The notes beneath the pieces were generated by a model, which saw only the letters and a list, made by a program, of their open reading frames with translations, was not told the DNA's origin and did no database searches. Position numbers and translations under genes: made by a program. A DNA stretch of 64,000 nt from a virus. Lineage: Duplodnaviria; Heunggongvirae; Uroviricota; Caudoviricetes. Every line of letters begins with the position of its first letter. The stretch's first letter is position 1. The stretch is from positions 64,946-128,945 of the IMG/VR virus record IMGVR_UViG_3300049211_000031; one strand, given 5' to 3'. Positions 16,256 to 41,021 of this stretch are shown here, piece by piece.

Positions 16256-16258
16256 AAC

Positions 16259-16999
16259 TTATTGCTTTTCATTTGTGGGTTTTAACCAAAGATTGGTTTT
16301 TGTAAAAATATAGTTTCTAAGCTTTCCAAACTCTAGAAGGTAATTTAATGTTCTATTTGTGTTATATTTAAAGCATTTATATAACTCTTCTCGAATTCTT
16401 TCTTCGGAAACAACTCCAAATCTTTCCTCGTAATTGAAGCTGTGAAGCATTCTTTGAATGTTGTAATCAATTTCAAAACCTTTTGTAATTGCAAACCTCA
16501 CTGCTCTCAAAAGTCGTAGAGGGTCATCAGAGAAAGTAATGCTTCCGTCAATAGGAGTTCTTAATAACTTTTTCTTAATATCCTCTTGTCCTCCAAATGG
16601 ATCAATAATATTTCCTGTAAGAGGATCTTTTGCCATAGCATTAACTGTAAAATCTCTACGAGCTAAATCCTCCTCTAGAGTTCCAGGAACAACAATTGGA
16701 GTACGAGTTCCTTCCTCGTATCCTATTTCTCTTCGAGCTAATACAAAATCAGCAATGAGAACACCAGCAGCCATTTTAGCTCGTATTGTATAAGCTCTAG
16801 GTGTGATGAGATAAATCTCATATCCTCTTAATTTAATATCCTCAACAAGAAGATTAAACACATCTTCTACAGAAGAATTTTTTGTTATTCTATCAAAGTT
16901 TGGAACAGCAACATAATCAATGTCTTTGGATTCTATTCCAAGAAGCTCATCTCTTATCTTACCACCTACTTCATAGAAATGGAATGATCCTTTATACAT
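16259..16999 (-). CDS. tRNA nucleotidyltransferase (class II CCA-adding / poly(A) polymerase family, head domain)
   Basis: 'VGGKIRDELLGIESKDIDY' (GGxVRD motif) and 'LARRDFTVNAMA' (RRD motif) are diagnostic of class II CCA enzymes; 246 aa, a minimal version. Confidence 0.8.
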   Translation of the reverse strand: MYKGSFHFYEVGGKIRDELLGIESKDIDYVAVPNFDRITKNSSVEDVFNLLVEDIKLRGYEIYLITPRAYTIRAKMAAGVLIADFVLARREIGYEEGTRTPIVVPGTLEEDLARRDFTVNAMAKDPLTGNIIDPFGGQEDIKKKLLRTPIDGSITFSDDPLRLLRAVRFAITKGFEIDYNIQRMLHSFNYEERFGVVSEERIREELYKCFKYNTNRTLNYLLEFGKLRNYIFTKTNLWLKPTNEKQ

Positions 17000-17225
17000 T
17001 TTTAATAATTTGTACTGTCTGATAATTATTTTTGTGTGCTATGTCCAGAAAAGCTGCAAGGTTGAACAGAGCTTGGTGAGAATTAGCATCACCAATTCTC
17101 ACATCTGTTCTTATCATCCAATATCTCTCGCAATTCTTTCCTCCTCCAACATCCTCAGAGGTCATCCAGTTTAAAACATCTTCTGTGGTTTGTACCTGCG
17201 AGAAAGGTAGTTGGAAAATTCTCAT
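16992..17225 (-). CDS. Hypothetical protein
   Basis: 77-aa ORF. Confidence 0.4.
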   Translation of the reverse strand: MRIFQLPFSQVQTTEDVLNWMTSEDVGGGKNCERYWMIRTDVRIGDANSHQALFNLAAFLDIAHKNNYQTVQIIKNV

Positions 17226-17235
17226 TTTGTAGAGT

Positions 17236-17424
17236 TTAACATGAATAATCGCATTTTCCTGTAATTTGGCAATATGTGCTGCAATATCCAGATGTATTAC
17301 CCTTTATTTGACTAATGCATTCTTCGTTTTTGCAAACATGTACGTCCTCGGATTTACAATGCTTTTCAAGTTCTTCCTCTTTACAGTATTCTCCACAGAA
17401 ATAACATTCGTATTTGTTATTCAT
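17236..17424 (-). CDS. Cys-rich zinc-ribbon-like small protein
   Basis: 62 aa with more than 12 Cys in CxxC pairs. Confidence 0.45.
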   Translation of the reverse strand: MNNKYECYFCGEYCKEEELEKHCKSEDVHVCKNEECISQIKGNTSGYCSTYCQITGKCDYSC

Positions 17425-18014
17425 CGTACATTTGTTTCAGATGAATGATGGTCTGGAAAAGCAGTTGGGCGATCTTCTAATAGAAGCGCTACTTCATCAA
17501 ATGAGAATGGACGATATTCCTTAAATATTCGGTAACAATTATCTATCCCAACATCCATAGATCTTCCCCATGGAGTTCTTTCAAGACTTCCATGGGAATG
17601 CCCATAAGCATGAAAATATCCTTTGTGGCTACCTTCCCAAACACGGCAAGAATAATGATGAAGATAAATACCTTGTTTATTTACATAGATGAGTTTTCCT
17701 GCACTAATTGATGAGAAGAATTCTGAATATTTAGGGATGTGTTCATCGTGGTTTCCTAAAACAATATGGATGTTTTCGCAAACAATACGTCGCCGATAAT
17801 CTGGGATTTTGTGGTGCCCTCCCATAGCAAAGTCTCCTACAATATAGAGAACATCTTTTTGTCCTACAACTTGGTTAATATTGTCAATAATAAGAGCATC
17901 CATTTCTTCTACAGAATCAAAGTTTCGATACCCTGTTTTCCATGTGGATGTTTTTGGACCAGCTATGTTTCGATGTCCTAGATGTAAATCCGATGTTAAA
18001 AAAATATTCTGCAT
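17421..18014 (-). CDS. Calcineurin-like metallophosphoesterase (putative 2',3'-phosphatase of RNA repair)
   Basis: 'DLHLGH', 'GDFAMGG', 'GNHDE' metallophosphoesterase motifs. The ORF-track start at 18116 overlaps the upstream gene; the internal ATG at 18014 (MQNIFLTSDLHLGH) abuts the upstream stop. Confidence 0.75.
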   Translation of the reverse strand: MQNIFLTSDLHLGHRNIAGPKTSTWKTGYRNFDSVEEMDALIIDNINQVVGQKDVLYIVGDFAMGGHHKIPDYRRRIVCENIHIVLGNHDEHIPKYSEFFSSISAGKLIYVNKQGIYLHHYSCRVWEGSHKGYFHAYGHSHGSLERTPWGRSMDVGIDNCYRIFKEYRPFSFDEVALLLEDRPTAFPDHHSSETNVR

Positions 18015-18015
18015 A

Positions 18016-18297
18016 CTAATAATTATAATGAAATAGAAGTATAGCTTTAATGTATCTTCGATCAATAAGCATAACACCATTATAGGCGCACATAACTTTG
18101 AGATAATTTCCATCAACTCTCATTTTCGTAGGCTTTATGTAGATGTCATCTTTTCTTTTAGCCCACTCCTTTACTGTATGGGAGGCTGCTGGCATATATT
18201 TTACAGCTTTTGGAGACAACCAAATATGACCTCTCATCTGAAGGTTAAAATGCTTACCGTAAAACTCTCGGACCCTAGCAAATTCTTTAGAAGTCAT
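18016..18297 (-). CDS. Hypothetical protein
   Basis: 93-aa ORF. Confidence 0.45.
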   Translation of the reverse strand: MTSKEFARVREFYGKHFNLQMRGHIWLSPKAVKYMPAASHTVKEWAKRKDDIYIKPTKMRVDGNYLKVMCAYNGVMLIDRRYIKAILLFHYNY

Positions 18298-18802
18298 TTG
18301 AAATCAAGTGTTTGTATTTGTCCTTGTTAATTTTGTTATAACTTTGGTACTTTTCTTTCATAACTTTGAAAGGAACCCATTTACCTGTCTTTACTCTACG
18401 CCATATATTGCGTAAATTAGCCTTCCATAAAGGAATATCCAGGAATTTTACATAAATACTCATCTTCTTGCTTGAGTGCATTCCTCTGAAGATTGTGAGA
18501 TATTTATCTATGCCAGATTCTCTACAATGAGTGTTATCAAGGATAATTACAGCCTTTTTGAAAGTAGAGGCTACCCCCATTTGTTTATAAAACTCCTTAG
18601 TAACTTCTGCTTCTTTCGCTTTAGAATAGTCATACTTCTTGCCGTATTTCGCTAAACGGATAGTATCACGACTTATTATAATGACAGGAGCACAATTATA
18701 CTTTAAATATAAATATTCTGTCATTCTCTTACTCCATGTACTCTTGCCTGCACATGGCATACCTGAGAGGATAATTAGCACTAAATTGTCTTGTTCTTGC
18801 AT
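18287..18802 (-). CDS. P-loop polynucleotide 5'-kinase (T4 Pnk-like kinase domain)
   Basis: Walker A 'SGMPCAGKST', 'IISRDTIR' (catalytic-Asp RD motif of Pnk), 'VIILDNTH' (DNTN-like Walker B). Confidence 0.65.
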   Translation of the reverse strand: MQEQDNLVLIILSGMPCAGKSTWSKRMTEYLYLKYNCAPVIIISRDTIRLAKYGKKYDYSKAKEAEVTKEFYKQMGVASTFKKAVIILDNTHCRESGIDKYLTIFRGMHSSKKMSIYVKFLDIPLWKANLRNIWRRVKTGKWVPFKVMKEKYQSYNKINKDKYKHLISNDF

Positions 18803-18814
18803 AGATGAAAAGTA

Positions 18815-19120
18815 TTAAAGGTCGTTAAAACTATATGTTGCTACGGTTTCTCTTTTACGGCTATTAATTCGCCTGTTTAAGAAAACAAATGGAGTACCTA
18901 TTTTATAATAGGCCTTTAGGGCAGTACCGTCCCAATTGTTTTCTATTTTGTTTAATTCAATAAGGTGTAGAAATTTGTCACGAATTTCTTTACGTTGAGC
19001 ATAGGGCAAGGTTTTGGGAATCTTTATTGCTGCAAAACCTCTCTGCAACACAAGTTTAGCCTGTGTTGCAGATTCTTCTAAAATGAAAATGTTCATGTTA
19101 TTCTGATTGTTGTGTCTCAA
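18815..19120 (-). CDS. Hypothetical protein
   Basis: 101-aa ORF. Confidence 0.45.
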   Translation of the reverse strand: MRHNNQNNMNIFILEESATQAKLVLQRGFAAIKIPKTLPYAQRKEIRDKFLHLIELNKIENNWDGTALKAYYKIGTPFVFLNRRINSRKRETVATYSFNDL

Positions 19121-20501
19121 TATCTATCTCTCCTTTGTCCAATTCTTTTGTTTCTCGCTCAGTAAAGCGGAAAGACTTAAGCTTGTAGGCGTCATAATCT
19201 AGACCTTCAACTCTTACAACGAAACCTTCTGCAGGTACTTTGTTTTTACATATGGTACAGTCTTTCTCCATATTGTAAGAATTGCTTAGTTTTTCAAGTA
19301 ATTCAGCTTGCCATTTGTCAAGTTCCATAGGATATACGGATAAGGTTGTACTATCTTCTATCATATCAGATAAGATTTCTCTTGCCTTACCATAGAAGAA
19401 TAGGGGGACAGCCTTCAAGCCGTTTCTTTTACACCATTCTTGTACTTGAAATGCTGAGAATTCATACTTCTGTCCAGCCCAGTTCGTATGAGTGATACGA
19501 TAGATGTATACACCATAGTGTACATCTTCTTCATAGTCTTCATAGTCTCCTTGACTAGGCCATTCGAAACCTTTTGATAAACGTTCTCTTTGTTGGTAAC
19601 CATAATCATAGCCTTTTTGAATAAGCTCTCCGGTTGGAGTGTAGCCCACAATTTCGGCATAAATAGTCATACCGTCAGGCATGTAATCTTTCAGGTAGTT
19701 AGCGGCGTATTTCCACAGGTCTTCTTTGTAATAATGATTGTAATTCTTGCTATTATCGTCATTTTTGATGACCTTACGAGAAGAATAAATCATGTCATAC
19801 TCAGTTTCAACAAATTGTACACCAAAGAACTTCAATAATTTACCAAACCAACCCAATTTCCTCTTAACCAATATTTTAGATGTTACACTCGACGTACCAT
19901 GTAGTTTATTAGTAATAGAGATTATTGAATCTGGAGTGATTTTATGGATGTTCTTTCCAAGGTGAGAAGTATCTACGTGAAATGCAAATTGACCATCTAC
20001 AACACGAGACTCTTTAGGTTTCTTAGCTTGCGCAGCACGAGCCATACCTCTACCATAGTTTGTGATTATAATGTACTTCTCACAGATTTTAACACCGTTG
20101 ATGTGATCAAAGGTGTCTCCTGCTTTTAGGGTAGCAAGATCCTTAACATCTGCGAATTTCAACAAGGAGTAAATTGGAATTACAAAACCTTGTGAGCGAT
20201 GTCCCCTGAATTTTACACAACGAATACGACCATTTTCTTCAAAGTAGCCTTTTTCGTCAATATTAGCATTCAATGTATTATCTTTGAATAAATTATTCTC
20301 TGATAAATACTGAACAGAAAGTTTTGTTTCTACTGGAAAATAGAGTACTTTGTCACCTATTTTTGTATCTTTACCAACGATGACAAGATTGCCAAAGATA
20401 TTTGTATGAACTACATTGTTACAGTTATCGAGAGGAATTATATTCTTAATCTCTACAACAGTAGCTGCATAATTCTCGTTAATTGGAGCCTTTAGAATCA
20501 T
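19098..20501 (-). CDS. ATP-dependent RNA ligase (Rnl2 / DraRnl-like, with N-terminal extension)
   Basis: Motif I 'ITNKLHGTS' (KxHGT adenylyl-lysine motif of the Rnl2/DraRnl family), motif IV-like 'AEGFVVRVEG', motif V-like 'YKLKSF'; 467 aa. Confidence 0.65.
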   Translation of the reverse strand: MILKAPINENYAATVVEIKNIIPLDNCNNVVHTNIFGNLVIVGKDTKIGDKVLYFPVETKLSVQYLSENNLFKDNTLNANIDEKGYFEENGRIRCVKFRGHRSQGFVIPIYSLLKFADVKDLATLKAGDTFDHINGVKICEKYIIITNYGRGMARAAQAKKPKESRVVDGQFAFHVDTSHLGKNIHKITPDSIISITNKLHGTSSVTSKILVKRKLGWFGKLLKFFGVQFVETEYDMIYSSRKVIKNDDNSKNYNHYYKEDLWKYAANYLKDYMPDGMTIYAEIVGYTPTGELIQKGYDYGYQQRERLSKGFEWPSQGDYEDYEEDVHYGVYIYRITHTNWAGQKYEFSAFQVQEWCKRNGLKAVPLFFYGKAREILSDMIEDSTTLSVYPMELDKWQAELLEKLSNSYNMEKDCTICKNKVPAEGFVVRVEGLDYDAYKLKSFRFTERETKELDKGEIDIETQQSE

Positions 20502-21241: not shown

Positions 21242-21418
21242 TTATAGTTTTAAAAGTTTAACAAATTTCCGTTCTTTTCTTCCAGTATAGCCATCTGTTT
21301 CTGTATACCATAGAATTAATTCCTTATCTTTTGTCCAGTCTAATTTTACTTCTAAGGCTATAGCTACAATTATTACGAAGAAGGAGTAGAAAAATAAAAT
21401 CATTATCCCTAAACTCAT
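21242..21418 (-). CDS. Small membrane protein (58 aa)
   Basis: Not in the ORF track. MSLGIMILFFYSFFVIIVAIALEV…; ATGA overlap with the upstream stop. Confidence 0.4.
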   Translation of the reverse strand: MSLGIMILFFYSFFVIIVAIALEVKLDWTKDKELILWYTETDGYTGRKERKFVKLLKL

Positions 21419-22323
21419 AAAATGTTTGTTATTGTGTCTTTGTTAATCCTCCTGTGTCCAACATTGTATCGTTGGTTATGAGGAGCATCAAAGAGATAAC
21501 AGAACGTATTACTATTGTTGTTTATGTTTAGAAATGTTTCGTATTTATCATCTATAAACACTTCTACTTCGTAGTTTGTACAGGCAGTAATTTTATCATT
21601 AGTAAATACAACAGGCGCTATTGGATATTTATTGATGGTAAATAACCAATCCAGAGTAGACTGTTTTGTACGAACATTCCTTGATGTAATATAAACAACT
21701 GGTTCTACTGGCAAATCTTCTGGTTTTACTATCATCTTAAGATTTCTATAGAAGTTTTGGTCTTCTATAACTTCCTCATACCTCTCTGGAAAGTCTCTGT
21801 CATATATCCAAGAAGAAGGTAGTGGAATGTTAAATCTTTCGCAATAGGCCCCTAGAAAATCTGCTAGTACCTCATCAATATCTATGCCAACTCGTACTTG
21901 CTTGTTTAATAGTGTCGGTCTGTCATCCCCTTGAGGATAAATTTTATAATATTCTGTCAGAAAGGCAGCATTACACATAACATGAGCAGAGTGAAGCAGT
22001 CCTGTCTCAGGGTCATAGTCTTCTCCTCGCTCAATTGCATTTAAGTGTCGCTTTAATGGACCAATAATACGGCTCCATTTCATACCTTTCATCCAGTTGT
22101 TGGGAGCATATTTTTTGGCTCCAAAGGTAAGAACTTTTGCAAGCTCATTAATAGCATTAGGAGGAAGTAAATCATGACGCACTTTATCTGTATCATGTCT
22201 AGTACCTCCCATTTTCTTTAAGCTAAATTCTGGAATGTCACTCATATCTATAAACTTCAAATTTAGGTTCAGGAATTCCCCAAAGTTCATCGTCAGGACC
22301 AAAAACTGTGGGATTTTTACCAC
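21415..22323 (-). CDS. Two-domain dNTP pyrophosphohydrolase (DUF5664-like) fused to HAD 5'(3')-deoxyribonucleotidase
   Basis: N-terminal 'HDLLPPNAINELAKVLTFGAKKYAPNNWMKGMKWSRIIGPLKRH' resembles the dATP/dGTP-diphosphohydrolase N-domain. C-terminal 'VGIDIDEVLADF' is the HAD DxDxV nucleophile motif of NT5C-type deoxynucleotidases. The true start is probably ATG at 22245. Confidence 0.65.
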   Translation of the reverse strand: MVKIPQFLVLTMNFGEFLNLNLKFIDMSDIPEFSLKKMGGTRHDTDKVRHDLLPPNAINELAKVLTFGAKKYAPNNWMKGMKWSRIIGPLKRHLNAIERGEDYDPETGLLHSAHVMCNAAFLTEYYKIYPQGDDRPTLLNKQVRVGIDIDEVLADFLGAYCERFNIPLPSSWIYDRDFPERYEEVIEDQNFYRNLKMIVKPEDLPVEPVVYITSRNVRTKQSTLDWLFTINKYPIAPVVFTNDKITACTNYEVEVFIDDKYETFLNINNNSNTFCYLFDAPHNQRYNVGHRRINKDTITNIL

Positions 22324-22864
22324 CGGGATTTATAGTGAAGAATCTTTCAAGCTCTTTCTTAAGAGACTCACTCTTATGAATAACACGCCATATGGTGCTT
22401 TCTATAGGCTGTGCTCTTTCGTTGTAAGTATGCTGAGGAAATAGCTTTTTATAATCATCACTGAATTTGGAATACTTTCCATCAAGGAAGTTAATATAGT
22501 CATTTATGTACTTATCTGGAATACGAAATACCATCATAATTAGATGTTTTCCATCCTGTATTCCACAGAAATACTCCAAAATGTATTCTCCCTTTGTTCT
22601 CAATCTCTGCGTTAACATCTGCCATTTCTGGTTCTTAACATCTGTTTTGAACAGGACGAAAATTACACGATCTAACGTGTGACCAAATCCATAGTCATCT
22701 AGAAACGCATTGACAAAGTATTCTGTACCCATTAAAGAGTTGTTAGGGAAGACAGCAGGCATCATAAAATGAGAAGTTTTTGTCTTCTTACGATCGAAGA
22801 CACTCTCTGGCACTTTATAATCTTCCTTTAGCACACCCTCAATGTTCACCTTATTTTTAGTCAT
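22238..22864 (-). CDS. Hypothetical protein
   Basis: 208-aa ORF. Confidence 0.5.
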   Translation of the reverse strand: MTKNKVNIEGVLKEDYKVPESVFDRKKTKTSHFMMPAVFPNNSLMGTEYFVNAFLDDYGFGHTLDRVIFVLFKTDVKNQKWQMLTQRLRTKGEYILEYFCGIQDGKHLIMMVFRIPDKYINDYINFLDGKYSKFSDDYKKLFPQHTYNERAQPIESTIWRVIHKSESLKKELERFFTINPGGKNPTVFGPDDELWGIPEPKFEVYRYE

Positions 22865-23942
22865 TAAAAAACTTTAATTTTATTTTACCTGTTTCGTACA
22901 ACTCTTTTGGTTCATTCCATACCTCATTTTTAATGTGCCATCCAATTTCGTCAAGAATTTGTCTCCATCCCTTGAATTTTTTGGAACCATACTCATAAAT
23001 GTAGAGGTCACCCTCGTCAAATCCGTAGATGTATGGAACCTTATTATCACGATCAATTACAATATCAAATGGTGTATGGATGGTAAAATCCTTAAAAACT
23101 CCTCCTTTGAATGTTTGTAGAAATCTTTGCACCATAAATCGGTAGAAAGACATTTGTCCGCCGTATTCGTATTTCTCAGCATTCTTTGGAAACTCATTGA
23201 CATCGTAAGCAGTTTTTAAGTCAGGAAGATATACAGCTTTTTCAGCAGGAACAATACGGATAATATCTACGGCAGCTTTAAGTGCTATTATGACATTCTC
23301 GTAGTTGTAATCTTCATAGATTTCCTGTTGATGTAAAAGTATTTCTCCTTCTTGTTGGACGAAATATGACATACTGCGAGGATGGTTTCTTAGATTTTCT
23401 ACCATTTGGTTTGCATCAGCACTTTCAATAGTAGAAATAATAGAACGGCCACTTGCTTCAGCTAAATGTTGAAAATATCCACTTCCATCTTCATACACAT
23501 TATCGAGAATACGACTTGTGCTCCATTTGTCTCCACCGTATTTAATTTCTCTTGCAAACTTTATAGTGAGGTCATTAAATTCGGAAAGATCATGAATGTT
23601 TGGAATATATAGTGGTTCTGGCACATTACCTTGCTCGTTTAATAGTATTTTGTTGTCTATGACCTCTTTTGCCTTTCTATAGACACGTTCTACTATGAGC
23701 TTTACTTTATCACCTGGAATATTTGGTTCATACCCCGGTATATAAAAACGCTCATTGAGTAGGGCTGGTTCAAATGCTAGAGTATCAACCAGAGAACCAA
23801 AAGTGAGACTATCTGTAGTTTCCTCATCATCGGAAACTTTGTCTATGTATATCTCCTTGAATTTGCTTAGGCTCATTTTTCGAAAAGCCTTAATAGCACT
23901 TTGAGAGATAGCAGACACTTGTCTATACTCTGATTTTTGCAT
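22857..23942 (-). CDS. Hypothetical protein
   Basis: 361-aa ORF, no confident motif; lies next to the ligase cassette. Confidence 0.5.
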   Translation of the reverse strand: MQKSEYRQVSAISQSAIKAFRKMSLSKFKEIYIDKVSDDEETTDSLTFGSLVDTLAFEPALLNERFYIPGYEPNIPGDKVKLIVERVYRKAKEVIDNKILLNEQGNVPEPLYIPNIHDLSEFNDLTIKFAREIKYGGDKWSTSRILDNVYEDGSGYFQHLAEASGRSIISTIESADANQMVENLRNHPRSMSYFVQQEGEILLHQQEIYEDYNYENVIIALKAAVDIIRIVPAEKAVYLPDLKTAYDVNEFPKNAEKYEYGGQMSFYRFMVQRFLQTFKGGVFKDFTIHTPFDIVIDRDNKVPYIYGFDEGDLYIYEYGSKKFKGWRQILDEIGWHIKNEVWNEPKELYETGKIKLKFFND

Positions 23943-24310
23943 TATTTGTGTGTTTTTGTATTATGACAGTCTTTGCATAGTATTTGATATCCTTCTTCAG
24001 CGAATAATCGCTCTACAAAACCTTTCAAATCATCGGAGTTTCTCAGACTACCAACTTCTTCTATATGATCTACCTCTATTTGTTTAGAAGCGAACCAGTT
24101 TTTGCATTGTTCACATTGGTATTCCCACTTTTGACGAGTGTTTTTTCCTTTGTAAGGTCTTCTAGCAGCATTTTTTGCATTCTGAATTGGTCTCCAATAC
24201 ATGCTTCTTCTTCTTAGAGCACTTCTTATCATACTCCAAAAAGTGGATTCTGTCATAGTTCCTGCATTTCTTGTTTTAGGAACCTTTTCTTTTTTAATTT
24301 TTTTAGGCAT
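23942..24310 (-). CDS. HNH endonuclease
   Basis: 'CEQCKNWF…VDHIEEV…CKDCHNTKTHK' HNH zinc-finger nuclease core. Confidence 0.8.
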   Translation of the reverse strand: MPKKIKKEKVPKTRNAGTMTESTFWSMIRSALRRRSMYWRPIQNAKNAARRPYKGKNTRQKWEYQCEQCKNWFASKQIEVDHIEEVGSLRNSDDLKGFVERLFAEEGYQILCKDCHNTKTHK

Positions 24311-24360: not shown

Positions 24361-25875
24361 TTAGAAGAGCCAGGAAACCCCCTCATAAGTGAACACATAT
24401 TCCTTATCGTTCTTCATTTCATTCTCGCTAATATAGTCACCGTTCGCCTTATCTCTTGAAAAATAAGCTTTTCTGTCAGCGACATATGCTTTTAAATAAG
24501 ATGAAAGGAATTGAGCATGGTCGCTCTTGAACGTTTCTCCATAATAGTCTAAGATGGAATTCAGATTGATAGGTTCTGCACTAGAAAGGATAGCGTCTGC
24601 ATTTTGGGCAGCATATTGGCAGATGGCATTACAGATGAATAACCAATTTACCATTTTCTGTCCATTCAGTGTACAGTGGTGTAGGCGAAACTCTACAGTT
24701 CTCCTTGGAGAGAAGAACATATTCATAAGATTTAGCCAAAAATACCGTCTCTTACGGTTCCATTTCTGGGACTGTTGATGAGTGTTTGTTACGCGATTGA
24801 AGTTATTATCTGGTGGAACGTCATCATTAAGCCATGTAGCTATACGATAATAAGCTTCATCAACGTATTGAGTGTATTCTTCCTTTTTCATTTTAGGGTT
24901 AAGAAGACCTGTACCAAGTTTGCGCAGCTTTTGACAATAATCCTGTTTTTTAACACCTTTACAATTTGTCTTGTAATAAGGAAACATTGTATACAACTCA
25001 TCCTGAATACGAATAGCAAGAGCGTAGAGGGCTACAATGAACAAACGATCCTCAGGAAGGTTACCAAGGTGGAAGTGTAAACTACACTTAATATCTGTAG
25101 TAGTCCGCTTGCACAGCTCACTAGACAGATATTTTAGGTTCAGCAATCCTCTTGCACCCTCCATAGGTACAGTAACGAATTCGGCATTGTCAATACTTCC
25201 ATCACGACATATTACAACACCTGTACGGTTTTGAATATGATCAGGAAGATGACCTCTGGAAGTTTCTACTTCCATACCAAATGTTGTAGTTCCCAGAAGC
25301 TTTCCAAAGCGTAGAGCCGCAGCGGATATTTTCATTGGATAATTCTTGAAGGCGTCAATCTTCTGTACAAATTCTTCAGAATTATCTTCAATGTTATATC
25401 CTTTGTGTGTGTGAACTTTACGACTTTCGATTCTGCTCATTCTTTCAAGCTCTTTAGGACTAAGGTTTTTACGGCACATCCATGAGCCAGAAGATAGATC
25501 TTCAGCGAAGTCATGTTTTACCAACATTTTTTCGCTAAATGTTTTCACCTGTCCATATTCAGGAATAGTTACTGTTAAGTTATTATACTTATTTTCAGTA
25601 AAGTACCCAAATATAGCAGTTCCGTCAGCCTTAAATCCTGTTACACCATAGACCAGAGGAGTGTCCTTTATGAGTACGTATTTCTCTTTTTCATGATCAA
25701 AAGCTATTAACTTTGAATCAAACCTGTACCACCTTTTGTTAATTTCAAAGCAGTCTTCTCCTTTTACATAGAATTTATCTCCTATGCGACGACAATTTCT
25801 ACGGTATTCTGTAATACCGCGAACAGTCTTTACTTTTCTTTGTTTTAAGTTTGGATTGTCTTTGAACCGTATCAT
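24361..25875 (-). CDS. Glutamine-synthetase-like amidoligase (COOH-NH2 ligase), paralogue 1
   Basis: 'FGMEVETSRG' (G-x-E-x-E metal-binding strand) and 'CSLHFHLG' (H-x-H) mirror the same two blocks in the 29336–30145 protein; the pattern resembles the amidoligase_2 family. Confidence 0.55.
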   Translation of the reverse strand: MIRFKDNPNLKQRKVKTVRGITEYRRNCRRIGDKFYVKGEDCFEINKRWYRFDSKLIAFDHEKEKYVLIKDTPLVYGVTGFKADGTAIFGYFTENKYNNLTVTIPEYGQVKTFSEKMLVKHDFAEDLSSGSWMCRKNLSPKELERMSRIESRKVHTHKGYNIEDNSEEFVQKIDAFKNYPMKISAAALRFGKLLGTTTFGMEVETSRGHLPDHIQNRTGVVICRDGSIDNAEFVTVPMEGARGLLNLKYLSSELCKRTTTDIKCSLHFHLGNLPEDRLFIVALYALAIRIQDELYTMFPYYKTNCKGVKKQDYCQKLRKLGTGLLNPKMKKEEYTQYVDEAYYRIATWLNDDVPPDNNFNRVTNTHQQSQKWNRKRRYFWLNLMNMFFSPRRTVEFRLHHCTLNGQKMVNWLFICNAICQYAAQNADAILSSAEPINLNSILDYYGETFKSDHAQFLSSYLKAYVADRKAYFSRDKANGDYISENEMKNDKEYVFTYEGVSWLF

Positions 25876-25880
25876 AAAAA

Positions 25881-28430
25881 TTAACTCCTTTGTTTAACGT
25901 ATGATATTATATCCTTCCTTAGTGCTGGCTCTTCATGTTTGTCTGTTAATTCCATTAACTTTGAGGTTAGGGAATCTACAGCAATATAAACAGCATTAGC
26001 TACTTCCTGAGCGAAATCATCTTCTTCGATGGCCTGCAGTTCATCAGAATGTTCACGAATTCTGAATGCAAGGTTAACGATTTCTCCAAACTGATAATTT
26101 CTTTCTTCCTTGTCGTCCTCAAAGGCATTAGAAACATCAGCAACTGGCCTCCATGTTTCCTCATCCTCTAATATCTCTTCATCTTCTAGAATTCCCTCAG
26201 AGGACATACGTAGTTTATGCTCTTTTTCTATTTCAGTTTCTGTTAGATGAGGTTCTTTATCGTCCTTTGGGTCGGCAATTACGCCTTCTTCTGTACACAC
26301 CCAGCTTTCAGGTATTTCATCATCAGAGCTGATAATGGACGGAACGGTAGTAAAATCCTTTGGATTGTATTTAATATTAGGAGCCATCATGATTGGTTCT
26401 GGAATGTGAGGAAAATTTACACAGCAAGAATCTTCGGCATAATCATCATCTATCGAATCGTCGTGGATATCGTCTTCATCATACATATTGCCTTCAGGGT
26501 TTTCTTTAGCAATGAGTAGATAAGTAAGGACATCCTTGTAATTTTTATCGTTCCAGTTGTCAATCACAGTAACGTCATTTTCAATACATTCTGCAAAGAA
26601 TAAATTCAAATAGACATCAACTGTTTCATCATAGACATTTTCAATCTTACAGACTCCTGTATCCATTAACACATCCGCTATGTAATAACGAATAGCACGT
26701 CTCTCTTCATTACTGAAGATTCCTTCAGCTTCCTCGATACTAGAGAACTTACGATAGAAATTCTTGAGATCAAGATCATTTGCGGCCTGAGTAGGAACTT
26801 CCTCAAATGGAATTTCTTGTTGTTCCTTGTTGCGTTTTTCATAAGCCTCTCTCATATCATCTATTGTTTGTTGAACCTCATCAATTGTTTTACTATCACC
26901 TCCCTTAATAATGCTTAAATGAGGATGTTTAGTTTCTACAGCGAGGGGGCTGGCTTGCCACAAGGACTTTCTTTCATCAATTAAGGCTTGTGTATTCACC
27001 ATTTCCTCTTCTTCAGCTACTGTACCCTTAGCATTCTTAATTTTATGCATCAGACCATCCTTGATGATGTAATGACGATCAGAGAACTTAGGAGTGAATC
27101 CCATGTTGTGACACATTACTTCATTATGGAACCAGCGGTATTTAGAATAAGCAGGTACCTCCTTAGCTCGTGTGTTAATGTCTTGGCGAGTGTGACATAC
27201 AGGATATTCTGAATATCGACTTATGTACATTGCAAAATTCCAGTTGGGATTAGCAATATTTGGGTCAATTTTAGCAGTTTTGTAAGCTCCCTCGCTCTTT
27301 ATCATTATACCCTCAATAAAGTAATAGTTAAACCCTTGTTTTCTTTCAAGAGACACTTTTCCTTTATTATTGATGTAGTACTCACCATGCATTGGTGTGA
27401 TAGCATCGTTATCTACTAACCAGTAACGGCCAAGATGATAGATAACACCGGTAGAGAATCTGTATCTTCCTGCACGGTGAGGAACTGTTTCCCACCATAT
27501 CATCGGAATAATCTTATCCAAATCCGGCGCTAAGGAACCACTAGAATAGCTATTACCCACGGAACTATTAGTCCCATGCGACGCCATGGTTGTAGGGGTT
27601 GTCGTATTCGTCCTCGTAGTAGTGCTTGCCGGACTTGCCCCTCCTCTTGTGGTTCCTCCTGTGTTTGGGGAGTGAGTGTAAGTAACGTTGATGTCTCCTC
27701 TTTCAATATAATGGTTATTACCAGTGATAGCGCCATCTTGTAAACGCATTACAACATTCTGAGGTACTTCACTGATGCTATCAGTGTCATAATCAGAAAT
27801 TGCAAACAGGCTCTTTTCGATAGAGCTAAAGTACACACCCTCTTTAGTTTGAAGATAGAACAAAGGTCTTTCTACCATTGTGTCACCGTGCCGAGTGACT
27901 TTAGAGGCGCCTTTGTAAATATACATACTATTAGGCCTGTCCTTATGAGCCATTAAAAGAGCTGCCCAACCTTCGTACTGTTCAAGAATGCTAAATCCTA
28001 CTTTATCTATAAGATGAGCTAATCCATGACTGTCTACACTGATACCTGTATGATTAACTCCATATTTATTACACAGGGGCCAGATATTTCTGATTTGACC
28101 ATTGTGAGCTAGTACAAAGTTATTATTAATGACAAATGGATGGGCATTGTCAGCAGTATGCGAACCTACAGTTGCGGCTCTAGTGTGTCCAATAATATTG
28201 AAATCTCCAGTTTCCATTGCATTAGGAAGAAGAAATTTAGCAATGAAATCAGAGAATAATTTTTGGTCATTTACACCTTTTACCACCCGATTGTTTATGT
28301 AAATACCACATGAGTGTTTACCTCGGTCGATGTTATACAACCCAAGGATTTTGATCTTGTTCATAGCTAACCTTGCCATAGTTTCATTCATTATAGCAGG
28401 GTTACCATTAAAGCCGAATAGTCCGCACAT
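25881..28430 (-). CDS. Class II (Ntn) glutamine amidotransferase domain protein with Thr-rich linker and long acidic C-terminal region
   Basis: N-terminus 'MCGLFGFNG' gives the Cys2 nucleophile of class II GATases. 'GGTTRGGASPASTTTRTNTTTPTTMASHGTNSS' is a linker. The C-terminal ~350 aa is extremely Asp/Glu-rich. Confidence 0.7.
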   Translation of the reverse strand: MCGLFGFNGNPAIMNETMARLAMNKIKILGLYNIDRGKHSCGIYINNRVVKGVNDQKLFSDFIAKFLLPNAMETGDFNIIGHTRAATVGSHTADNAHPFVINNNFVLAHNGQIRNIWPLCNKYGVNHTGISVDSHGLAHLIDKVGFSILEQYEGWAALLMAHKDRPNSMYIYKGASKVTRHGDTMVERPLFYLQTKEGVYFSSIEKSLFAISDYDTDSISEVPQNVVMRLQDGAITGNNHYIERGDINVTYTHSPNTGGTTRGGASPASTTTRTNTTTPTTMASHGTNSSVGNSYSSGSLAPDLDKIIPMIWWETVPHRAGRYRFSTGVIYHLGRYWLVDNDAITPMHGEYYINNKGKVSLERKQGFNYYFIEGIMIKSEGAYKTAKIDPNIANPNWNFAMYISRYSEYPVCHTRQDINTRAKEVPAYSKYRWFHNEVMCHNMGFTPKFSDRHYIIKDGLMHKIKNAKGTVAEEEEMVNTQALIDERKSLWQASPLAVETKHPHLSIIKGGDSKTIDEVQQTIDDMREAYEKRNKEQQEIPFEEVPTQAANDLDLKNFYRKFSSIEEAEGIFSNEERRAIRYYIADVLMDTGVCKIENVYDETVDVYLNLFFAECIENDVTVIDNWNDKNYKDVLTYLLIAKENPEGNMYDEDDIHDDSIDDDYAEDSCCVNFPHIPEPIMMAPNIKYNPKDFTTVPSIISSDDEIPESWVCTEEGVIADPKDDKEPHLTETEIEKEHKLRMSSEGILEDEEILEDEETWRPVADVSNAFEDDKEERNYQFGEIVNLAFRIREHSDELQAIEEDDFAQEVANAVYIAVDSLTSKLMELTDKHEEPALRKDIISYVKQRS

Positions 28431-28460
28431 AATTGCTTGTTGTTATTTTAATTATTTAAA

Positions 28461-29336
28461 TTAAACCGCAGCGTCTTCCAGAGCATTTATTTTAGCAAAA
28501 ATAATTGCAGGTATTCTTTCTAAATACCTTTGAAGTGTGATTTCACCAAAAGAAGGAGCTGAGTTGATTTCAATTACGATGAACTCAGGGTTTTCCCTCA
28601 CAATAGTCCCTTTCTTTTTGGAATCTCTGGATGCAGACTGTACTTTTACATCTACAGCACCAAAATCAAGACCTACGGCATTAAGAGCTTTTACACTCTC
28701 AGCTACTATAGCGTCCCAATTGGTAGGTCTGTCAAATGATTCGTTTTCTTCAACTATCCAATTACAATTGGAGTCATTTCTAAACCAGCGTTGATCAGCT
28801 GGAACATCAGGACGTAACAATTTACGGCATGTATAAAACACACCAGCCTGAGTTACGTGCAGGCGATATTCACGGTTGTAAGAATAATACTTCTCAAAAA
28901 TATAATTTGAGAGAGTTTTACCATTTACCCATCTAATAAAGTCATCAGGTGTCTTTAATAGATAATTACCGGTACCACGACTACCATAAATATGCTTCGC
29001 TACAAGTGGAAAAGATATTTGTGCTAGAGTTACTGATTCCTCAGTGTTTCCAACATTAAATGTATGGGTTTCAGGCATTGTTTCCACTGTACGATCATAT
29101 GTCCACCATAAAGCAGTTTTTACGTCAGCTGCCGCAAAACACTGCTTCATAAGAAGCTTATTTGCTGAATTCTGAATAGCTTGAATAGTGTTCACCTCAA
29201 TGAATTGTTTGTCAGTAGGTGTAGGAGTTGTACTTCCTAGTCGTACAATAGCCCTTTTAGGCATTCTAGGAAGCAGTTCACGTAATGGATCGTGTGTCGA
29301 ATGTCTTGAACGAACTCTTGGTCTGAATTTATTCAT
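28461..29336 (-). CDS. ATP-grasp ligase (RimK / GshB-like)
   Basis: 'VAKHIYGSRGTGNYL' (K…GS.G.G) and 'IVIEINSAPSFG' (E-x-N catalytic loop) typical of ATP-grasp enzymes. Confidence 0.65.
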   Translation of the reverse strand: MNKFRPRVRSRHSTHDPLRELLPRMPKRAIVRLGSTTPTPTDKQFIEVNTIQAIQNSANKLLMKQCFAAADVKTALWWTYDRTVETMPETHTFNVGNTEESVTLAQISFPLVAKHIYGSRGTGNYLLKTPDDFIRWVNGKTLSNYIFEKYYSYNREYRLHVTQAGVFYTCRKLLRPDVPADQRWFRNDSNCNWIVEENESFDRPTNWDAIVAESVKALNAVGLDFGAVDVKVQSASRDSKKKGTIVRENPEFIVIEINSAPSFGEITLQRYLERIPAIIFAKINALEDAAV

Positions 29337-30145
29337 TATGCTGCAAGTTTTACGCCGAAGTACTTACACATGGTTTCTGCAAGTGCTTTATCAGCTTTGT
29401 TAATAGCGAGTCTTATAGCTTGTCCTTCTTCTTCGTTAATCACACTTTCACGATTAACGAATTCAATGGCTTCCATTGTATTATCAAATACCCATTTTGT
29501 TAACTCCTTGGAGTTAATGTAGTAGTTTGATATGGTGCGGTATTCTGCTCCATAATCTTTGTTACGGAATGCTCCAGCCTTACCATATAATAATTTGCGA
29601 TCATTATCTGGTTCTTGGATAACAGAGGGCAATCCAATAAAAATGTCCATAGCCTTAATTAAAGACATGTTTATTTGTGGAGAGGAATCCTCATATCCAA
29701 TATGGATATGCCCACCACAACTGCGGAGATTTCCGTCTATAGCTTGAGGTTTATCATTTACCATTCCACTATACCATGCATTATAGTCTGGCTCACAGCC
29801 GAACATTTGTGCATTTGGTGTATCTAACCACCTTCCATCTACTTTTGCAGATGGAAAGGCAAGAATAGAAAGATTACCAGGAATGGTATTGTGAATGTAG
29901 TTTAGGGCTGTTTCGATACCAGTACGAAAATCATCACTTGTCGTAGCAGGAGGTATACAGAATTCTGCCATTACATTGTCAAGTGATGTGGCGTAGAAGT
30001 GGTTATCCTTCATGAAACGAAAAGGTTCTTCTTTAGTTCCGCGAATTATACCTTCTGCAGAAACAATTTCGTCGGAAATCTTGTCTCTTAAAAAGACCTC
30101 TATGTCCGCTCCTAGAGTTACGTTTTCAACTAATTTTTTTCTCAT
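29336..30145 (-). CDS. Glutamine-synthetase-like amidoligase (COOH-NH2 ligase), paralogue 2
   Basis: 'LGADIEVFL' and 'CGGHIHIGYED' blocks (the same G-x-[DE]-x-E and H-x-H pattern as 24361–25875). Confidence 0.55.
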   Translation of the reverse strand: MRKKLVENVTLGADIEVFLRDKISDEIVSAEGIIRGTKEEPFRFMKDNHFYATSLDNVMAEFCIPPATTSDDFRTGIETALNYIHNTIPGNLSILAFPSAKVDGRWLDTPNAQMFGCEPDYNAWYSGMVNDKPQAIDGNLRSCGGHIHIGYEDSSPQINMSLIKAMDIFIGLPSVIQEPDNDRKLLYGKAGAFRNKDYGAEYRTISNYYINSKELTKWVFDNTMEAIEFVNRESVINEEEGQAIRLAINKADKALAETMCKYFGVKLAA

Positions 30146-30704
30146 ATTTGTACTTTGTAGGAAGAAGTTCTACTTCTTTAGAATAACTCCATCTGAACTT
30201 TGAACAAGTAGCTCTTTTACCTTTACAACAAGCAATAATATGTGCTGTACTTTTTAGGTTTAACTCTCTAACTACTTGAGAAATGCTTTCCCATTCTTTT
30301 AAAAAACTTCCATCTAAACCAAATTGAAATACTCTTTTCTTTTTCTTTCTGGAAGACATAAGTTTTTTAGACTCCTCTGTATGTTTTCTATATCTTCCTC
30401 TATGAGCTGTTTGCAAAATATTATACTCAGGTTTGTTTTCCTGAATATAATAATTCTCTCTTTCAAGAATTGTAGAATAGTCACAGTACTCTAACACTTG
30501 AAATATGAAATTTCCTTTTCCATACTTATTCCAAGCATTTTGAAGATGAAGTGAGTGATGAATATTTCTATAAAGAGCAGACTTATGATTATTCCATCTT
30601 ATTCTTGAGTTTTTACAACTTCCTATGTAACAATGATTATTTAGAATGTTTACTATTCTATAAATACATGACTCCATATGTATATTTTTTTCACAAATAT
30701 ACAT
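30126..30704 (-). CDS. GIY-YIG homing endonuclease
   Basis: 'CIYRIVNILNNHCYIGSCKNSRIRWNNHKS…NAWNKYG…FQVLE…ERENYYIQE…YNI' is the GIY-YIG (I-TevI-like) catalytic domain plus a C-terminal DNA-binding region. It is inserted between cassette genes. Confidence 0.85.
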   Translation of the reverse strand: MYICEKNIHMESCIYRIVNILNNHCYIGSCKNSRIRWNNHKSALYRNIHHSLHLQNAWNKYGKGNFIFQVLEYCDYSTILERENYYIQENKPEYNILQTAHRGRYRKHTEESKKLMSSRKKKKRVFQFGLDGSFLKEWESISQVVRELNLKSTAHIIACCKGKRATCSKFRWSYSKEVELLPTKYKYEKKIS

Positions 30705-30746
30705 AAATTGGAGCAGATACTAGAATAGATAATTAAAGTTAATTAC

Positions 30747-31856
30747 TTATGCACCAATTGTAGGATTAAGCACTAACTTTTTTTCATTCTTCTTTGCTTC
30801 TTTTTTGATTTTATAAGAATCCTTGATTTCCTTGATAAATCCAGCGTAATCTCCTTTACTGAACAACTCCAGTACTTTATGTCCATCGTAGGCTTGCTTA
30901 AGACTAGTTAAACCCTTAAGATCTGCTCCTCCTAAATACTTCATTGCATTTTGGGTTAACATCTCGTTTAGTTTTACGTTATACTTTTTTCCATAAGCCT
31001 CCCATAAGGCTCGGAAACGGGCTTTAGTGATATTAAGACAAGGACCAGTTAAACCTGATGCTTTAAAATTGTAATCACCTATATCACGATTATTTCCACT
31101 AACTCCCATGTAATCACTGAAACACATAGAGTTTCCATAATTCCATGGATGTGCTGCATGAGCGTACAAGAATGCTTTCAGGAATGACATTTTATAATCC
31201 TCGTGTAGCATCATAGTGACGCGAGGGATGTTGTAATATGCCAATCTTGGCGCATTTGGTAAGACAACGGTTCTGTTAGTGCCAGAAACTAACCCATTCC
31301 ACAAGTAACGTAAAGCTACCCAATGTAAGTATGGTTTAAGGATATTTACTTGGTCAAATACTGGTACACCCACCCAATAGAATATATTATTTCTATGTGT
31401 TGAGGGATAGTTGCTAAACCATTGGTGAGGTTCACCAACATTCGTGCAGGCAGGAGCAGCCTGTTCACCAAAGTAGAGGTATTCAAACCCTACTTTTTGA
31501 TCATTAAACTTCTTAATCCATAAGAGAAGGTCGTTCTCATCTAAGCCTACTCCAGCTAATTCTTCACGGTGAATAGGAAATAAGTAGAAATAGCCTGCAT
31601 TTCTTGTAAACGCACAGCAACTGGCATTTTGGATAATCTTAAACTGACCTATAGGAAAGCGATTGTCATTGAAGACAGCATATCCATCAACATTCCAATA
31701 ATCAGGTTGACAGAAGGAAGCAATACCCACTTCTTGAATTTTCTTTATTATCTGCTCATTGGTTGTCCCTTCACTGGGCGTAAAATAAATACTGCGATGG
31801 TAAGTTGCAGCGCTTATAGCATCATTAGCAAACTTTCTTGAAAACGACATAAACAA
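30747..31856 (-). CDS. Hypothetical protein (cassette member, unknown fold)
   Basis: 369 aa, Trp/Tyr-rich; lies between the GIY-YIG gene and the GGCT gene. Confidence 0.5.
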   Translation of the reverse strand: MFMSFSRKFANDAISAATYHRSIYFTPSEGTTNEQIIKKIQEVGIASFCQPDYWNVDGYAVFNDNRFPIGQFKIIQNASCCAFTRNAGYFYLFPIHREELAGVGLDENDLLLWIKKFNDQKVGFEYLYFGEQAAPACTNVGEPHQWFSNYPSTHRNNIFYWVGVPVFDQVNILKPYLHWVALRYLWNGLVSGTNRTVVLPNAPRLAYYNIPRVTMMLHEDYKMSFLKAFLYAHAAHPWNYGNSMCFSDYMGVSGNNRDIGDYNFKASGLTGPCLNITKARFRALWEAYGKKYNVKLNEMLTQNAMKYLGGADLKGLTSLKQAYDGHKVLELFSKGDYAGFIKEIKDSYKIKKEAKKNEKKLVLNPTIGA

Positions 31857-31878
31857 ACAAAAATTTAATTAAAAAATA

Positions 31879-32313
31879 TTATCTGTAACTAGCATACTTA
31901 TTTTCTGTATACTGTTTCCAGTCACCACTTTCTACAGGAGGATTTTTACCAACTTGGTTTTCTGTTTGGGTATAGATGAATGCTTTACCCCATTCAGTGT
32001 TAATGGTTTGTTTATCATACCATCCTGGATAACCTTCCAGTCGATCTAGACGAGCCTCTACAGTAGGGTTAGTAACACGAAACACTTCAATAGTGATGGT
32101 GCTTTCTTTACCGGGAGTAGAAATCATACCGGGAAATCCACCCATTGACACCATACGGAAAGGAGCGGTTAAGGTTTGAGTACCTAAATACTCACTGTAT
32201 TCATTTTGTAACAAGCGATTGTTACCAAATCCTTGACGGAGAGTACCATACACAGCATAGAGTTTCGGTGTTGGTAATTCCTGTACTACTGGTTCTTGTT
32301 GTAATTCGTTCAT
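31879..32313 (-). CDS. Gamma-glutamyl cyclotransferase (GGCT / AIG2-like)
   Basis: 'YAVYGTLRQGFGNNRLL' is the YxxYGSL-type GGCT/AIG2 motif. Confidence 0.65.
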   Translation of the reverse strand: MNELQQEPVVQELPTPKLYAVYGTLRQGFGNNRLLQNEYSEYLGTQTLTAPFRMVSMGGFPGMISTPGKESTITIEVFRVTNPTVEARLDRLEGYPGWYDKQTINTEWGKAFIYTQTENQVGKNPPVESGDWKQYTENKYASYR

Positions 32314-39775: not shown

Positions 39776-40477
39776 CTATTTAGATTTTTTACTATAATAA
39801 TTGGTTACTGTTTCACGTACTAAGTTTAGATCGTTGGGAATTTGTTTATCTTTAAACATGCCCATTGGAGTCTTAGTAGTGCTATCAGCGTCTCTTGTTA
39901 CGAATACATAGTCTACATCATCATCCTGTGTTTTTAGCTTCTTAGCTAACAGAATAACAGTAAAATACGCTTCATATGTCCCTAGCTTGTCATCAACAAG
40001 TTTTCCTAGAGTCATGGCTTTCATTTGTTTATCTTCGGTAATACCATCCCCCACTTCTGATACGTGGTGCATAATAAATACCATAAGATCATCACGAAGA
40101 CCTTTCGAGAGTTGCGCTATATTAATCATATTTGCAGCGATGTCGTTCCACTTATCCCAAGTGGATTCACCCATACGCCTTAAATATTCCATTGTAGATT
40201 GCTGAGTGTTATCATCAATTACAACGTTCTTAATATGCGGCATTTTCGCACTGATAAAATTTAACCAAGTGATTACAGCTTGTGCAGAAGTAGTAATTAC
40301 TACGTTTCCATCAGGATTCTTGTCCTTATTATAAACTGTATAGAGGTCTTCACTTCCCTCAAATGGAAGCTCCTTACCTAAAGAGTTGATAATGAACGTC
40401 TCTTTAGGATTTAGGGTACGAACCGAGGAGCTTTTTCCAGCTCCTGATTTACCCAGAATTAAAACTGCTTTACTCAA
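39776..40477 (-). CDS. RecA-fold ATPase, Sak4-like (AAA_24)
   Basis: Walker A 'GKSGAGKSS' near the N-terminus, Walker B-like 'VVIDD'; about 230 aa, the size typical of phage Sak4 annealase/ATPase. TTG start. Confidence 0.45.
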   Translation of the reverse strand: MSKAVLILGKSGAGKSSSVRTLNPKETFIINSLGKELPFEGSEDLYTVYNKDKNPDGNVVITTSAQAVITWLNFISAKMPHIKNVVIDDNTQQSTMEYLRRMGESTWDKWNDIAANMINIAQLSKGLRDDLMVFIMHHVSEVGDGITEDKQMKAMTLGKLVDDKLGTYEAYFTVILLAKKLKTQDDDVDYVFVTRDADSTTKTPMGMFKDKQIPNDLNLVRETVTNYYSKKSK

Positions 40478-40547: not shown

Positions 40548-41021
40548 TCACGAATCAAACTGAACCGTGCCAGCCTTTTTAAGGCTAAGAAGGAGTTTCA
40601 TTGTTTTTACCAATCCGTTTTCTTTACAGCCCTTGAGTAGATGTGACATGTACTCTGCAGAGGCTTTTGCTTTTGGTAATGGACGGTAAAGAGGATTCAC
40701 GCATATATACGCGAACATCGTTTTACCGTCTTTCAATGGAACTGCCATCTTTTGATAGACAAAGGGACATCCCTCTCTACCGTCAAGAATGCGAAATTGT
40801 TTAGGAGTAAGCTCATAAAGCACTCCCTCAACGGCATCCTTACGATTGCCCGTCATTGTAATGTTTGCAAACCGTTGGCTTCCAGGGCCACAGTTAAACT
40901 CAAGTTTCCAGTATGGGAGCTTGATAACTCCTATTTTAGAAACTTTTCCAACACGGGATTCTAGGCGTTCTTGGTTCATGTTTGATCCGTAAGCAAAGTA
41001 TAGCTTCTTTATTGTCTTCAT
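40548..41021 (-). CDS. GGCT / AIG2-like gamma-glutamyl cyclotransferase, second copy
   Basis: 'LYFAYGSNMNQERL' is the YxYGSN motif of the AIG2/GGCT fold. Confidence 0.6.
   Translation of the reverse strand: MKTIKKLYFAYGSNMNQERLESRVGKVSKIGVIKLPYWKLEFNCGPGSQRFANITMTGNRKDAVEGVLYELTPKQFRILDGREGCPFVYQKMAVPLKDGKTMFAYICVNPLYRPLPKAKASAEYMSHLLKGCKENGLVKTMKLLLSLKKAGTVQFDS

Follow-up and report, generated by a model that had tools for sequence, protein, structure and literature searches.

Phages of the phiEco32, LUZ24, and phiRIO-1 types share a cassette of ligases, amidotransferases, and cyclotransferases that was predicted by Iyer et al. 2009 and for which Hardies et al. 2013 proposed similar chemistry (both as quoted in PMC4819975, PMC5498523, and PMC11945000). 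One account describes it as a seven-gene “peptidoglycan modification cassette” and lists phiEco32, 7-11, PA11, tf, MR299-2, LUZ24, PaP3, and CW02 as carriers (PMC5498523). The role predicted by Iyer et al. 2009, as repeated in PMC11945000, PMC10580990, and PMC3890496, is cell-wall modification, superinfection exclusion, or priming for lysis. Our literature search retrieved no biochemical characterization and no solved structure of cassette members. Here, we analyze such a cassette in a 64,000-nucleotide stretch of an uncultured tailed phage (Caudoviricetes; positions 64,946 to 128,945 of the IMG/VR record IMGVR_UViG_3300049211_000031), referred to below as the window.

The window holds a further copy of this known system. 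The five families typical of the phiEco32, LUZ24-PaP3, and phiRIO-1 cassettes, namely PF14395, PF12224, class II glutamine amidotransferase (GATase), RimK-like ATP-grasp, and GGCT/AIG2, are encoded together in one co-directional operon within the early/middle replication arm. By analogy with cellular pathways that use gamma-glutamyl handles, these enzymes probably carry out gamma-glutamyl or peptide ligation and glutamine-dependent amidation on an acceptor other than DNA, followed by removal of the gamma-glutamyl group by a cyclotransferase. Support for this reading comes from the family assignments, the conservation of active-site residues, and the co-occurrence of the families. An earlier note on this DNA, made from the letters alone, had described seven consecutive leftward genes, and all seven were found where it placed them; profile searches against Pfam, PHROGs, and NCBIfam bore out each of its family calls, including that of a second GGCT gene outside the operon. 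The genes are as follows, the seven of the cassette in the order of transcription and then the second GGCT gene, with E-values in parentheses.

31879..32313, minus strand: GGACT-type gamma-glutamyl(amine) cyclotransferase, 144 aa, first gene of the cassette (Pfam GGACT PF06094, 3.8e-19; phrog_2520, 3e-29)
30747..31856, minus strand: X369, 369 aa, no family, lineage-restricted, probable start at 31850
30126..30704, minus strand: GIY-YIG homing endonuclease, 192 aa (Pfam GIY-YIG, 8.4e-10; phrog_314, 7.8e-27)
29336..30145, minus strand: phiEco32-type COOH-NH2 ligase type 2 (GS/GCS fold), 269 aa (PF14395, 1.9e-12; phrog_3815, 1.5e-64)
28461..29336, minus strand: RimK-family ATP-grasp ligase, 291 aa (phrog_2599, 4.2e-35; NCBIfam rimK_fam, 5.6e-8; Pfam, 0.0027)
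25881..28430, minus strand: class II (Ntn) glutamine amidotransferase, 849 aa, N-terminus MCGLFG (GATase_6/4/7 over residues 1-210; GATase_6, 5.6e-12)
24361..25875, minus strand: Amidoligase_2 (GS/GCS fold), 504 aa (PF12224, 3.9e-7; phrog_2443, 1.6e-28)
40548..41021, minus strand: second GGCT-family gene (AIG2_2/GGCT-like), 157 aa, outside the cassette (AIG2_2, 9.2e-10; GGACT, 6.5e-8)

The cassette genes overlap or are separated by gaps of at most 50 nt, and a promoter and terminator scan yielded no signal above chance; on account of this tight packing and the lack of such signals, we read the cassette as a single operon. It is flanked on one side by genes for UDG, primase, Sak4, helicase, and PolA and on the other side by those for PD-(D/E)XK nuclease, MazG, RNA ligase, and RNR, the genomic setting also typical of the phiEco32/LUZ24-type cassettes. 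Rfam, tRNA, and repeat scans detected nothing beyond chance.

The products of PaP3 orf42-48 and phiEco32 gp77-86 are annotated with the same functions, as is the cassette of the Leptolyngbya phage Lbo-JY46, and the window proteins are 24-46% identical to their counterparts in these three phages. The differences from the phiEco32/LUZ24-PaP3/phiRIO-1 form are in layout and size: the window order is Y-X-C-P-G-A (letters following the list above, with the GIY-YIG gene omitted) rather than C-A-G-P-Y or h-C-A-G-P, a conserved X369 gene and a GIY-YIG insertion are added, and the GATase (849 aa) and the amidoligase (504 aa) are much longer. The window also lacks the Peptidase_C26-like gene of the phiEco32 and LUZ24-PaP3 cassettes and counterparts of PaP3 orf47/49/50 and phiEco32 gp85/87/88. 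The closest annotated relative is Lbo-JY46 (PP438436, XAI97308-97313), the genome of which is similar in size (125 kb). Identity to Lbo-JY46 amounts to 46% for the COOH-NH2 ligase, 44% for the ATP-grasp protein, 41% for the GGACT cyclotransferase, 37% over the full length of the amidoligase, including its N-terminal domain, and 34% for the GATase through its middle domain. Unlike the window, Lbo-JY46 encodes class I GATase/C26-like proteins, lacks X369, and has a 536-aa ATP-grasp protein.

Judging by their active-site residues, the three ATP-dependent carboxylate-amine ligases (PF12224, PF14395, and RimK-family ATP-grasp) are catalytically intact. The COOH-NH2 ligase scores 47.4 bits against the 25-bit cut-off of PF14395, is also 40% identical to PaP3 orf48 and 35% to phiEco32 gp86, and shares with distant homologs the invariant residues D14-x-E16, E61, R141, H146-x-H148, and E201-Y-R203. 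The Amidoligase_2 protein scores 30.6 bits against the 22-bit cut-off of PF12224 and retains G200-x-E202-x-E204, D225-G-S, H267-x-H269, R361, and E395-F-R397 in a comparison of the same kind; its N-terminus is a 215-aa basic domain that recurs in 31 ORFs of related loci. The ATP-grasp protein falls below the Pfam cut-off (17.8 vs 21 bits), yet it aligns with the Lbo-JY46 ATP-grasp at the identity given above. Its NCBIfam matches, rimK_fam and MptN (2.8e-6), both lie far under their cut-offs, and the score against the RimK family alpha-L-glutamate ligase model TIGR00768 is 32.5 bits compared to the required 143.4, so that by sequence, it is related to this family without being a member. Residues K60, E156, R158, K172, D229, and E256-x-N258 are nevertheless invariant, including those that bind Mg and ATP. 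Thus, the G-x-E-x-E/H-x-H and E-x-N motifs quoted in the earlier note are present in these proteins and invariant across distant homologs. The note had also taken the two GS-like ligases for paralogs. Both are indeed GS-like, but they belong to different Pfam families and match each other in blastp only with an E-value of 0.037 across 55 residues, so that they do not qualify as close paralogs. Sequence searches of the PDB with four cassette proteins found no real relatives.

The class II GATase scores 46.3 bits against the 27-bit cut-off of GATase_6, and all glutaminase residues are present, with Cys2 and the HTRxAT, HNGxIxN, and VDS motifs invariant. The catalytic domain (residues 1-245) is followed by an extension of 600 residues that consists of several parts: a linker rich in S, T, G, N, and P (250-300), a clade-specific beta-rich domain (about 320-410), and two helical domains (555-650 and 773-849) separated by a disordered acidic stretch (652-772). 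The AlphaFold2 (AF2) model of the whole protein has a pTM of 0.37, and the fold search is reported for the N-terminal domain alone; in Foldseek, this domain matched GlmS/GFAT, PurF, AsnB, and EgtC with E-values of 1e-9 to 1e-7. The C-terminal domains showed no relationship to the small proteins encoded after the GATase gene in other cassettes, and in those comparisons, the beta-rich middle domain matched only Lbo-JY46 (97.6%).

The long acidic stretch of the GATase and the affinity of the ATP-grasp protein, which is nearest to the RimK/MptN alpha-L-glutamate ligases, bring up protein tagging, whereby the ligases would couple glutamate or a short peptide to a protein of the phage or the host in the manner of RimK/S6, LysX/LysW, or PafA/Pup, and the GGACT enzyme would clear gamma-Glu-epsilon-Lys remnants. 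Enzymes of both types, RimK-family ATP-grasp and GS-fold ligases, are those that add tags to the C-termini or lysines of proteins, and other cassettes encode small proteins that could be carriers or substrates. PaP3 orf44 (L002 10141-10359) and phiEco32 gp78 (L003 22420-22605) are both small and acidic, with Glu as their last residue, and in hCAGP-type cassettes, the ATP-grasp gene is directly followed by that of a 94-97 aa protein with the C-terminus (F/Y)AEA(A/V/T) or a close variant (L037, L049, L058, L060, L065, L067, L068, and L072). The window cassette itself contains no small carrier-like ORF, and we found neither a carrier or tag protein nor a cognate substrate ending in Glu or Gln in the window. 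C-terminal Asp or Glu was observed in 14% of the small ORFs inside cassettes compared to 13% outside. With neither a small ORF nor an enrichment of acidic C-termini, we rejected a carrier protein for the window. The suggestion in the earlier note that the GATase protein could be tagged on its own acidic tail did not hold up either: the tail is poorly conserved, predicted to be disordered, and the protein ends in ..VKQRS rather than in Glu. Taken together, these observations make protein tagging unlikely.

The two cyclotransferases differ in type. The in-operon protein contains the YGTL motif, which we take to be characteristic of the GGACT type, and the glutamate of LDxxEG; it is 39% identical to PaP3 orf42, and its gene occupies the same position in seven relatives (L004-L010). 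The second protein contains the motif YFAYGSNM, presumably diagnostic of the GGCT type. Its gene, which has a putative link to the cassette, lies 8 kb upstream, beside Sak4, and is conserved in the lineage, being present in both L004 and L006 and forming part of the YYXCPGA order seen in relatives.

A tblastn search with the PF14395 ligase retrieved 315 GenBank phage records, among them 121 from Pseudomonas and 94 from Escherichia phages, along with Vibrio, Aeromonas, and Proteus phages and the crAss-like phage cr108_1; the best match was Lbo-JY46 (46%). A scan of IMG/VR for the same ligase identified 371 contigs. The earlier note had regarded the gene combination as part of no characterized phage pathway; this remains accurate insofar as no product has been shown, but the cassette as such is a recognized module, as these numbers attest. 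Co-occurrence was analyzed in 87 sources, that is, the window and 86 fetched viral loci that hold a COOH-NH2 ligase, many of the latter cut by contig ends, with ORFs labeled using iterated hidden Markov models. Within this set, Amidoligase_2 was found in 76 sources, class II GATase in 81, ATP-grasp in 77, class I GATase/Peptidase_C26-like proteins in 65, and GGCT in 45. Few gene orders recur: hCAGP (23 sources), YPhCGA (7), CAGPY (6), and YYXCPGA (5), the last being that of the window's own lineage. Because the families recur together across these sources in so few arrangements, their combination is not due to chance. No Peptidase_C26-like ORF was detected in the window between 22 and 43 kb, including the interval from UDG to the cassette; this gene, frequent but not universal in the cassettes, is present in the relatives L006, L011, and L012.

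In cellular genome collections covering 185,579 species, we detected only 32 loci with the type-2 ligase (L087-L118). Nearly all of these are phage-sized contigs of metagenome-assembled genomes (MAGs), and the remaining cassette genes accompany the ligase on most of the longer contigs, so that the type-2 COOH-NH2 ligase is essentially restricted to viruses. Several of the MAG loci were binned as Saccharibacteria or other bacteria of the candidate phyla radiation (CPR) and one as an archaeon; such loci probably reflect phage contigs put into the wrong bin or else phages that infect those hosts.

This distribution bears on the possibility that the cassette consists of auxiliary metabolic genes that reprogram the host nitrogen or amino-acid pool by acting on free glutamine, glutamate, or glutathione-like compounds, with no specific adduct formed. 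Such a role was proposed in the Phage-ZRK32 paper for amidoligase, GATase, GGCT, and “glutathione synthase”; it would agree with the GGCT-proper type of the second cyclotransferase, which acts on gamma-glutamyl amino acids, and with the adjacency of PncB, PrsA, and SNO-GATase genes to the Lbo-JY46 cassette. A fixed operon of three distinct ligases across hundreds of phages, in contrast, argues for a defined multi-step product, the phage restriction of the type-2 ligase is unlike that of host-derived auxiliary metabolic genes, and the evidence for ZRK32 is a growth correlation only. We consider this explanation improbable. As an observation on Lbo-JY46 itself, its genes for PncB (nicotinate phosphoribosyltransferase), PrsA (PRPP synthetase), and SNO/class I GATase immediately precede the cassette (L001 6757-11591) and might connect it with NAD or PRPP metabolism, which is not the case in the window.

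Cellular pathways in which a gamma-glutamyl group is put on an amine and later removed include those of polyamine (PuuA/PuuD), ergothioneine (EgtA/EgtC), and butirosin (BtrJ/BtrG) metabolism. They combine a GS/GCS-fold or ATP-grasp ligase with a C26 hydrolase, a class II Ntn hydrolase, or a GGCT-fold cyclotransferase. The cassette appears to present the same pairing of enzyme types, with EgtC among the structural matches of its GATase, although its proteins score far below the respective family cut-offs, and those pathways are cellular ones with known substrates. On this analogy, gamma-glutamyl or peptide ligation with subsequent deprotection would proceed as follows. In the replication (middle) phase of infection, the ligases would form as many as three amide bonds on a single acceptor. 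The GS-fold ligases would activate carboxylates as acyl-phosphates and couple these to amines, as GS, PuuA, and GCL do, at least one of the resulting bonds probably being a gamma-glutamyl-amine link, and the RimK-like enzyme would probably add one alpha-linked Glu. The GATase could supply NH3 for amidation of an activated carboxylate or else act as an EgtC-like gamma-glutamyl-amide hydrolase. Finally, the GGACT enzyme would remove the gamma-glutamyl group as 5-oxoproline and free the amine, either for deprotection, similar to BtrG in butirosin biosynthesis, or for recycling. For the acceptor, the most likely candidates are small metabolites of amine or peptide nature or, following the published conjecture, peptides resembling a peptidoglycan precursor, rather than DNA. 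The view taken in the earlier note, that the genes form a toolkit for building and trimming gamma-glutamyl or peptide-like amide adducts, fits both the families and the proposals of Iyer et al. 2009 and Hardies et al. 2013, to the extent that these are quoted in the later papers.

Several points weigh against this reconstruction. Every step past fold and active-site integrity is drawn by analogy, and our literature search gave no product or substrate for any cassette member. The trimming arm may differ in the window, which lacks the Peptidase_C26-like gene found in most of the sources. Three basic cassette proteins (amidoligase, ATP-grasp, and X369, with pI about 9.1) and the DNA-metabolism neighbors would also fit a nucleic-acid acceptor. 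The peptidoglycan conjecture, in particular, fits poorly with middle-phase expression, PaP3 ORF32-48 being middle genes expressed with the replication genes, and with reports that predicted archaeal viruses encode amidoligases and GATases.

The nucleic-acid alternative was already raised in the earlier note, which suggested an amino-acid or polyamine adduct on DNA bases. In this form of base hypermodification, the cassette would append an amino acid or polyamine to a nucleobase of DNA (or RNA). The operon is located inside a module of replication and nucleotide-metabolism genes, the expression of the homologous PaP3 genes coincides with that of replication genes, the three basic proteins point in the same direction, and amino-acid-bearing thymidines were reportedly found in other phages by Lee et al. 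in 2018. No positive evidence of such an adduct emerged. Pfam and PHROGs searches of window ORFs of at least 150 aa, which cover 64 kb of a roughly 120-kb genome and include several ORFs without a family, detected no dUMP/dCMP hydroxymethylase, 5-HMU DNA kinase, aGPT-Pplase, or DpdA-like transferase. ThyX, dUTPase (window 8696-9133), and RNR point to an ordinary dTTP supply, the sole P-loop kinase has a phosphoesterase on one side and an RNA ligase on the other, an arrangement resembling an RNA-repair set, and the DNA of U17, a LUZ24-like carrier of the cassette, was cut by 11 of 16 restriction enzymes. To our knowledge, the known hypermodification pathways use other enzyme families. Base hypermodification is, accordingly, highly improbable, and we retain gamma-glutamyl or peptide ligation on a non-DNA acceptor as the preferred interpretation.

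X369 is the one new protein of the window cassette. It was found in 10 of the 87 sources, always between the GGACT and COOH-NH2 ligase genes. The earlier note had listed it as an unknown protein of 369 aa; the lack of a family was confirmed, but translation most likely starts at the third codon (31850), giving 367 aa, because the homologs align from M3 and gene callers on identical contigs report that length. Neither tblastn against phages nor a pattern scan of IMG/VR identified relatives, which were recovered in searches of metagenome proteins, and no matching solved fold was found. We examined PaP3 orf47/49/50, phiEco32 gp85/87/88, and the Lbo-JY46 neighbors as potential counterparts and rejected them, with hhalign probabilities of at most 1.2%. 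A Foldseek search of BFVD with the X369 model gave weak matches to uncharacterized proteins of cassette-bearing phages, one from cr108_1 with a probability of 0.94 and a TM-score of 0.32 and the others with probabilities of at most 0.11; these model-based matches are suggestive, and we do not accept them as homology. We regard X369 as a lineage-specific accessory protein, possibly for substrate recognition.

The GIY-YIG gene is an insertion, as the earlier note had stated, and a mobile passenger rather than a functional part of the cassette: it is missing at this site in three relatives (L004, L005, and L006), in which the 369-aa gene directly abuts the ligase gene. On the near-identical contig L121, which encodes an identical ligase protein, a 96-aa gene occupies the site, and no GIY-YIG gene was called; given this gene, the insertion may be polymorphic within the population.

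The window represents a deep, uncultured phage lineage, given that even the best-matching GenBank phage polymerases, those of crAss-like phages, share no more than 30% identity with its family A DNA polymerase (PolA, window 44069-46027). Megablast of the cassette against GenBank phages found no near-identical DNA, whereas 12 further contigs carry the same phage. The contigs of relatives are roughly 113-131 kb in length.

Some other genes of the window deserve mention. The ThyX-like protein (window 6874-7788, 304 aa) aligns with no more than the C-terminal two-thirds of the Thy1/ThyX models, and its score of 49.9 bits falls short of the equivalog cut-off of 87.9; we regard it as a divergent ThyX. 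A minus-strand group (window 14041-20501) encodes a nucleotidyltransferase (phrog_388), a PolyA_pol-head (CCA-adding-like) protein, a Metallophos phosphoesterase, an AAA_33/KTI12-like P-loop kinase, and an RNA ligase (phrog_968), an apparent RNA/tRNA-repair toolkit; ARAGORN detected no tRNA genes in the window. At 21415-22323, a MazG-like dNTP pyrophosphohydrolase domain is fused to a 5'-3' deoxyribonucleotidase-like region (phrog_37590, phrog_801, and phrog_2643), and relatives keep this fusion downstream of their cassettes under the annotation dGTP_diPhyd_N. Just downstream of the amidoligase gene are those for a 122-aa HNH protein and, next to it, a PD-(D/E)XK/DUF3799 nuclease (window 22857-24310), a pair found in the same position in L004 (17288-18741) and L006 (17278-18754). 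Considering this conserved position and the nuclease that follows, the HNH protein looks like a fixed partner of a recombination module that includes Sak4 (39776-40477) rather than a free homing endonuclease.

What the window adds to the known cassette is a further deep-branching lineage, X369 as a new conserved accessory protein, and evidence for an essentially viral distribution of the type-2 ligase. It does not make the cassette easier to solve because cultured models already exist and offer better routes. It is a long shot that the cassette, together with X369 and the basic N-terminal domain of the amidoligase, modifies a nucleic acid, either DNA or tRNA, by adding a gamma-glutamyl or amino-acid group or else yields a small molecule that counteracts a host defense; if true, hundreds of phages, therapeutic Pseudomonas phages among them, would share a phage chemistry of a new class. 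Among phage multi-enzyme modules without a known product, the cassette is one of the most widespread, being carried by LUZ24-like therapeutic Pseudomonas phages, phiEco32-like coliphages, crAss-like gut phages, and cyanophages, and its solution would bring to light a conserved step in how phages infect.

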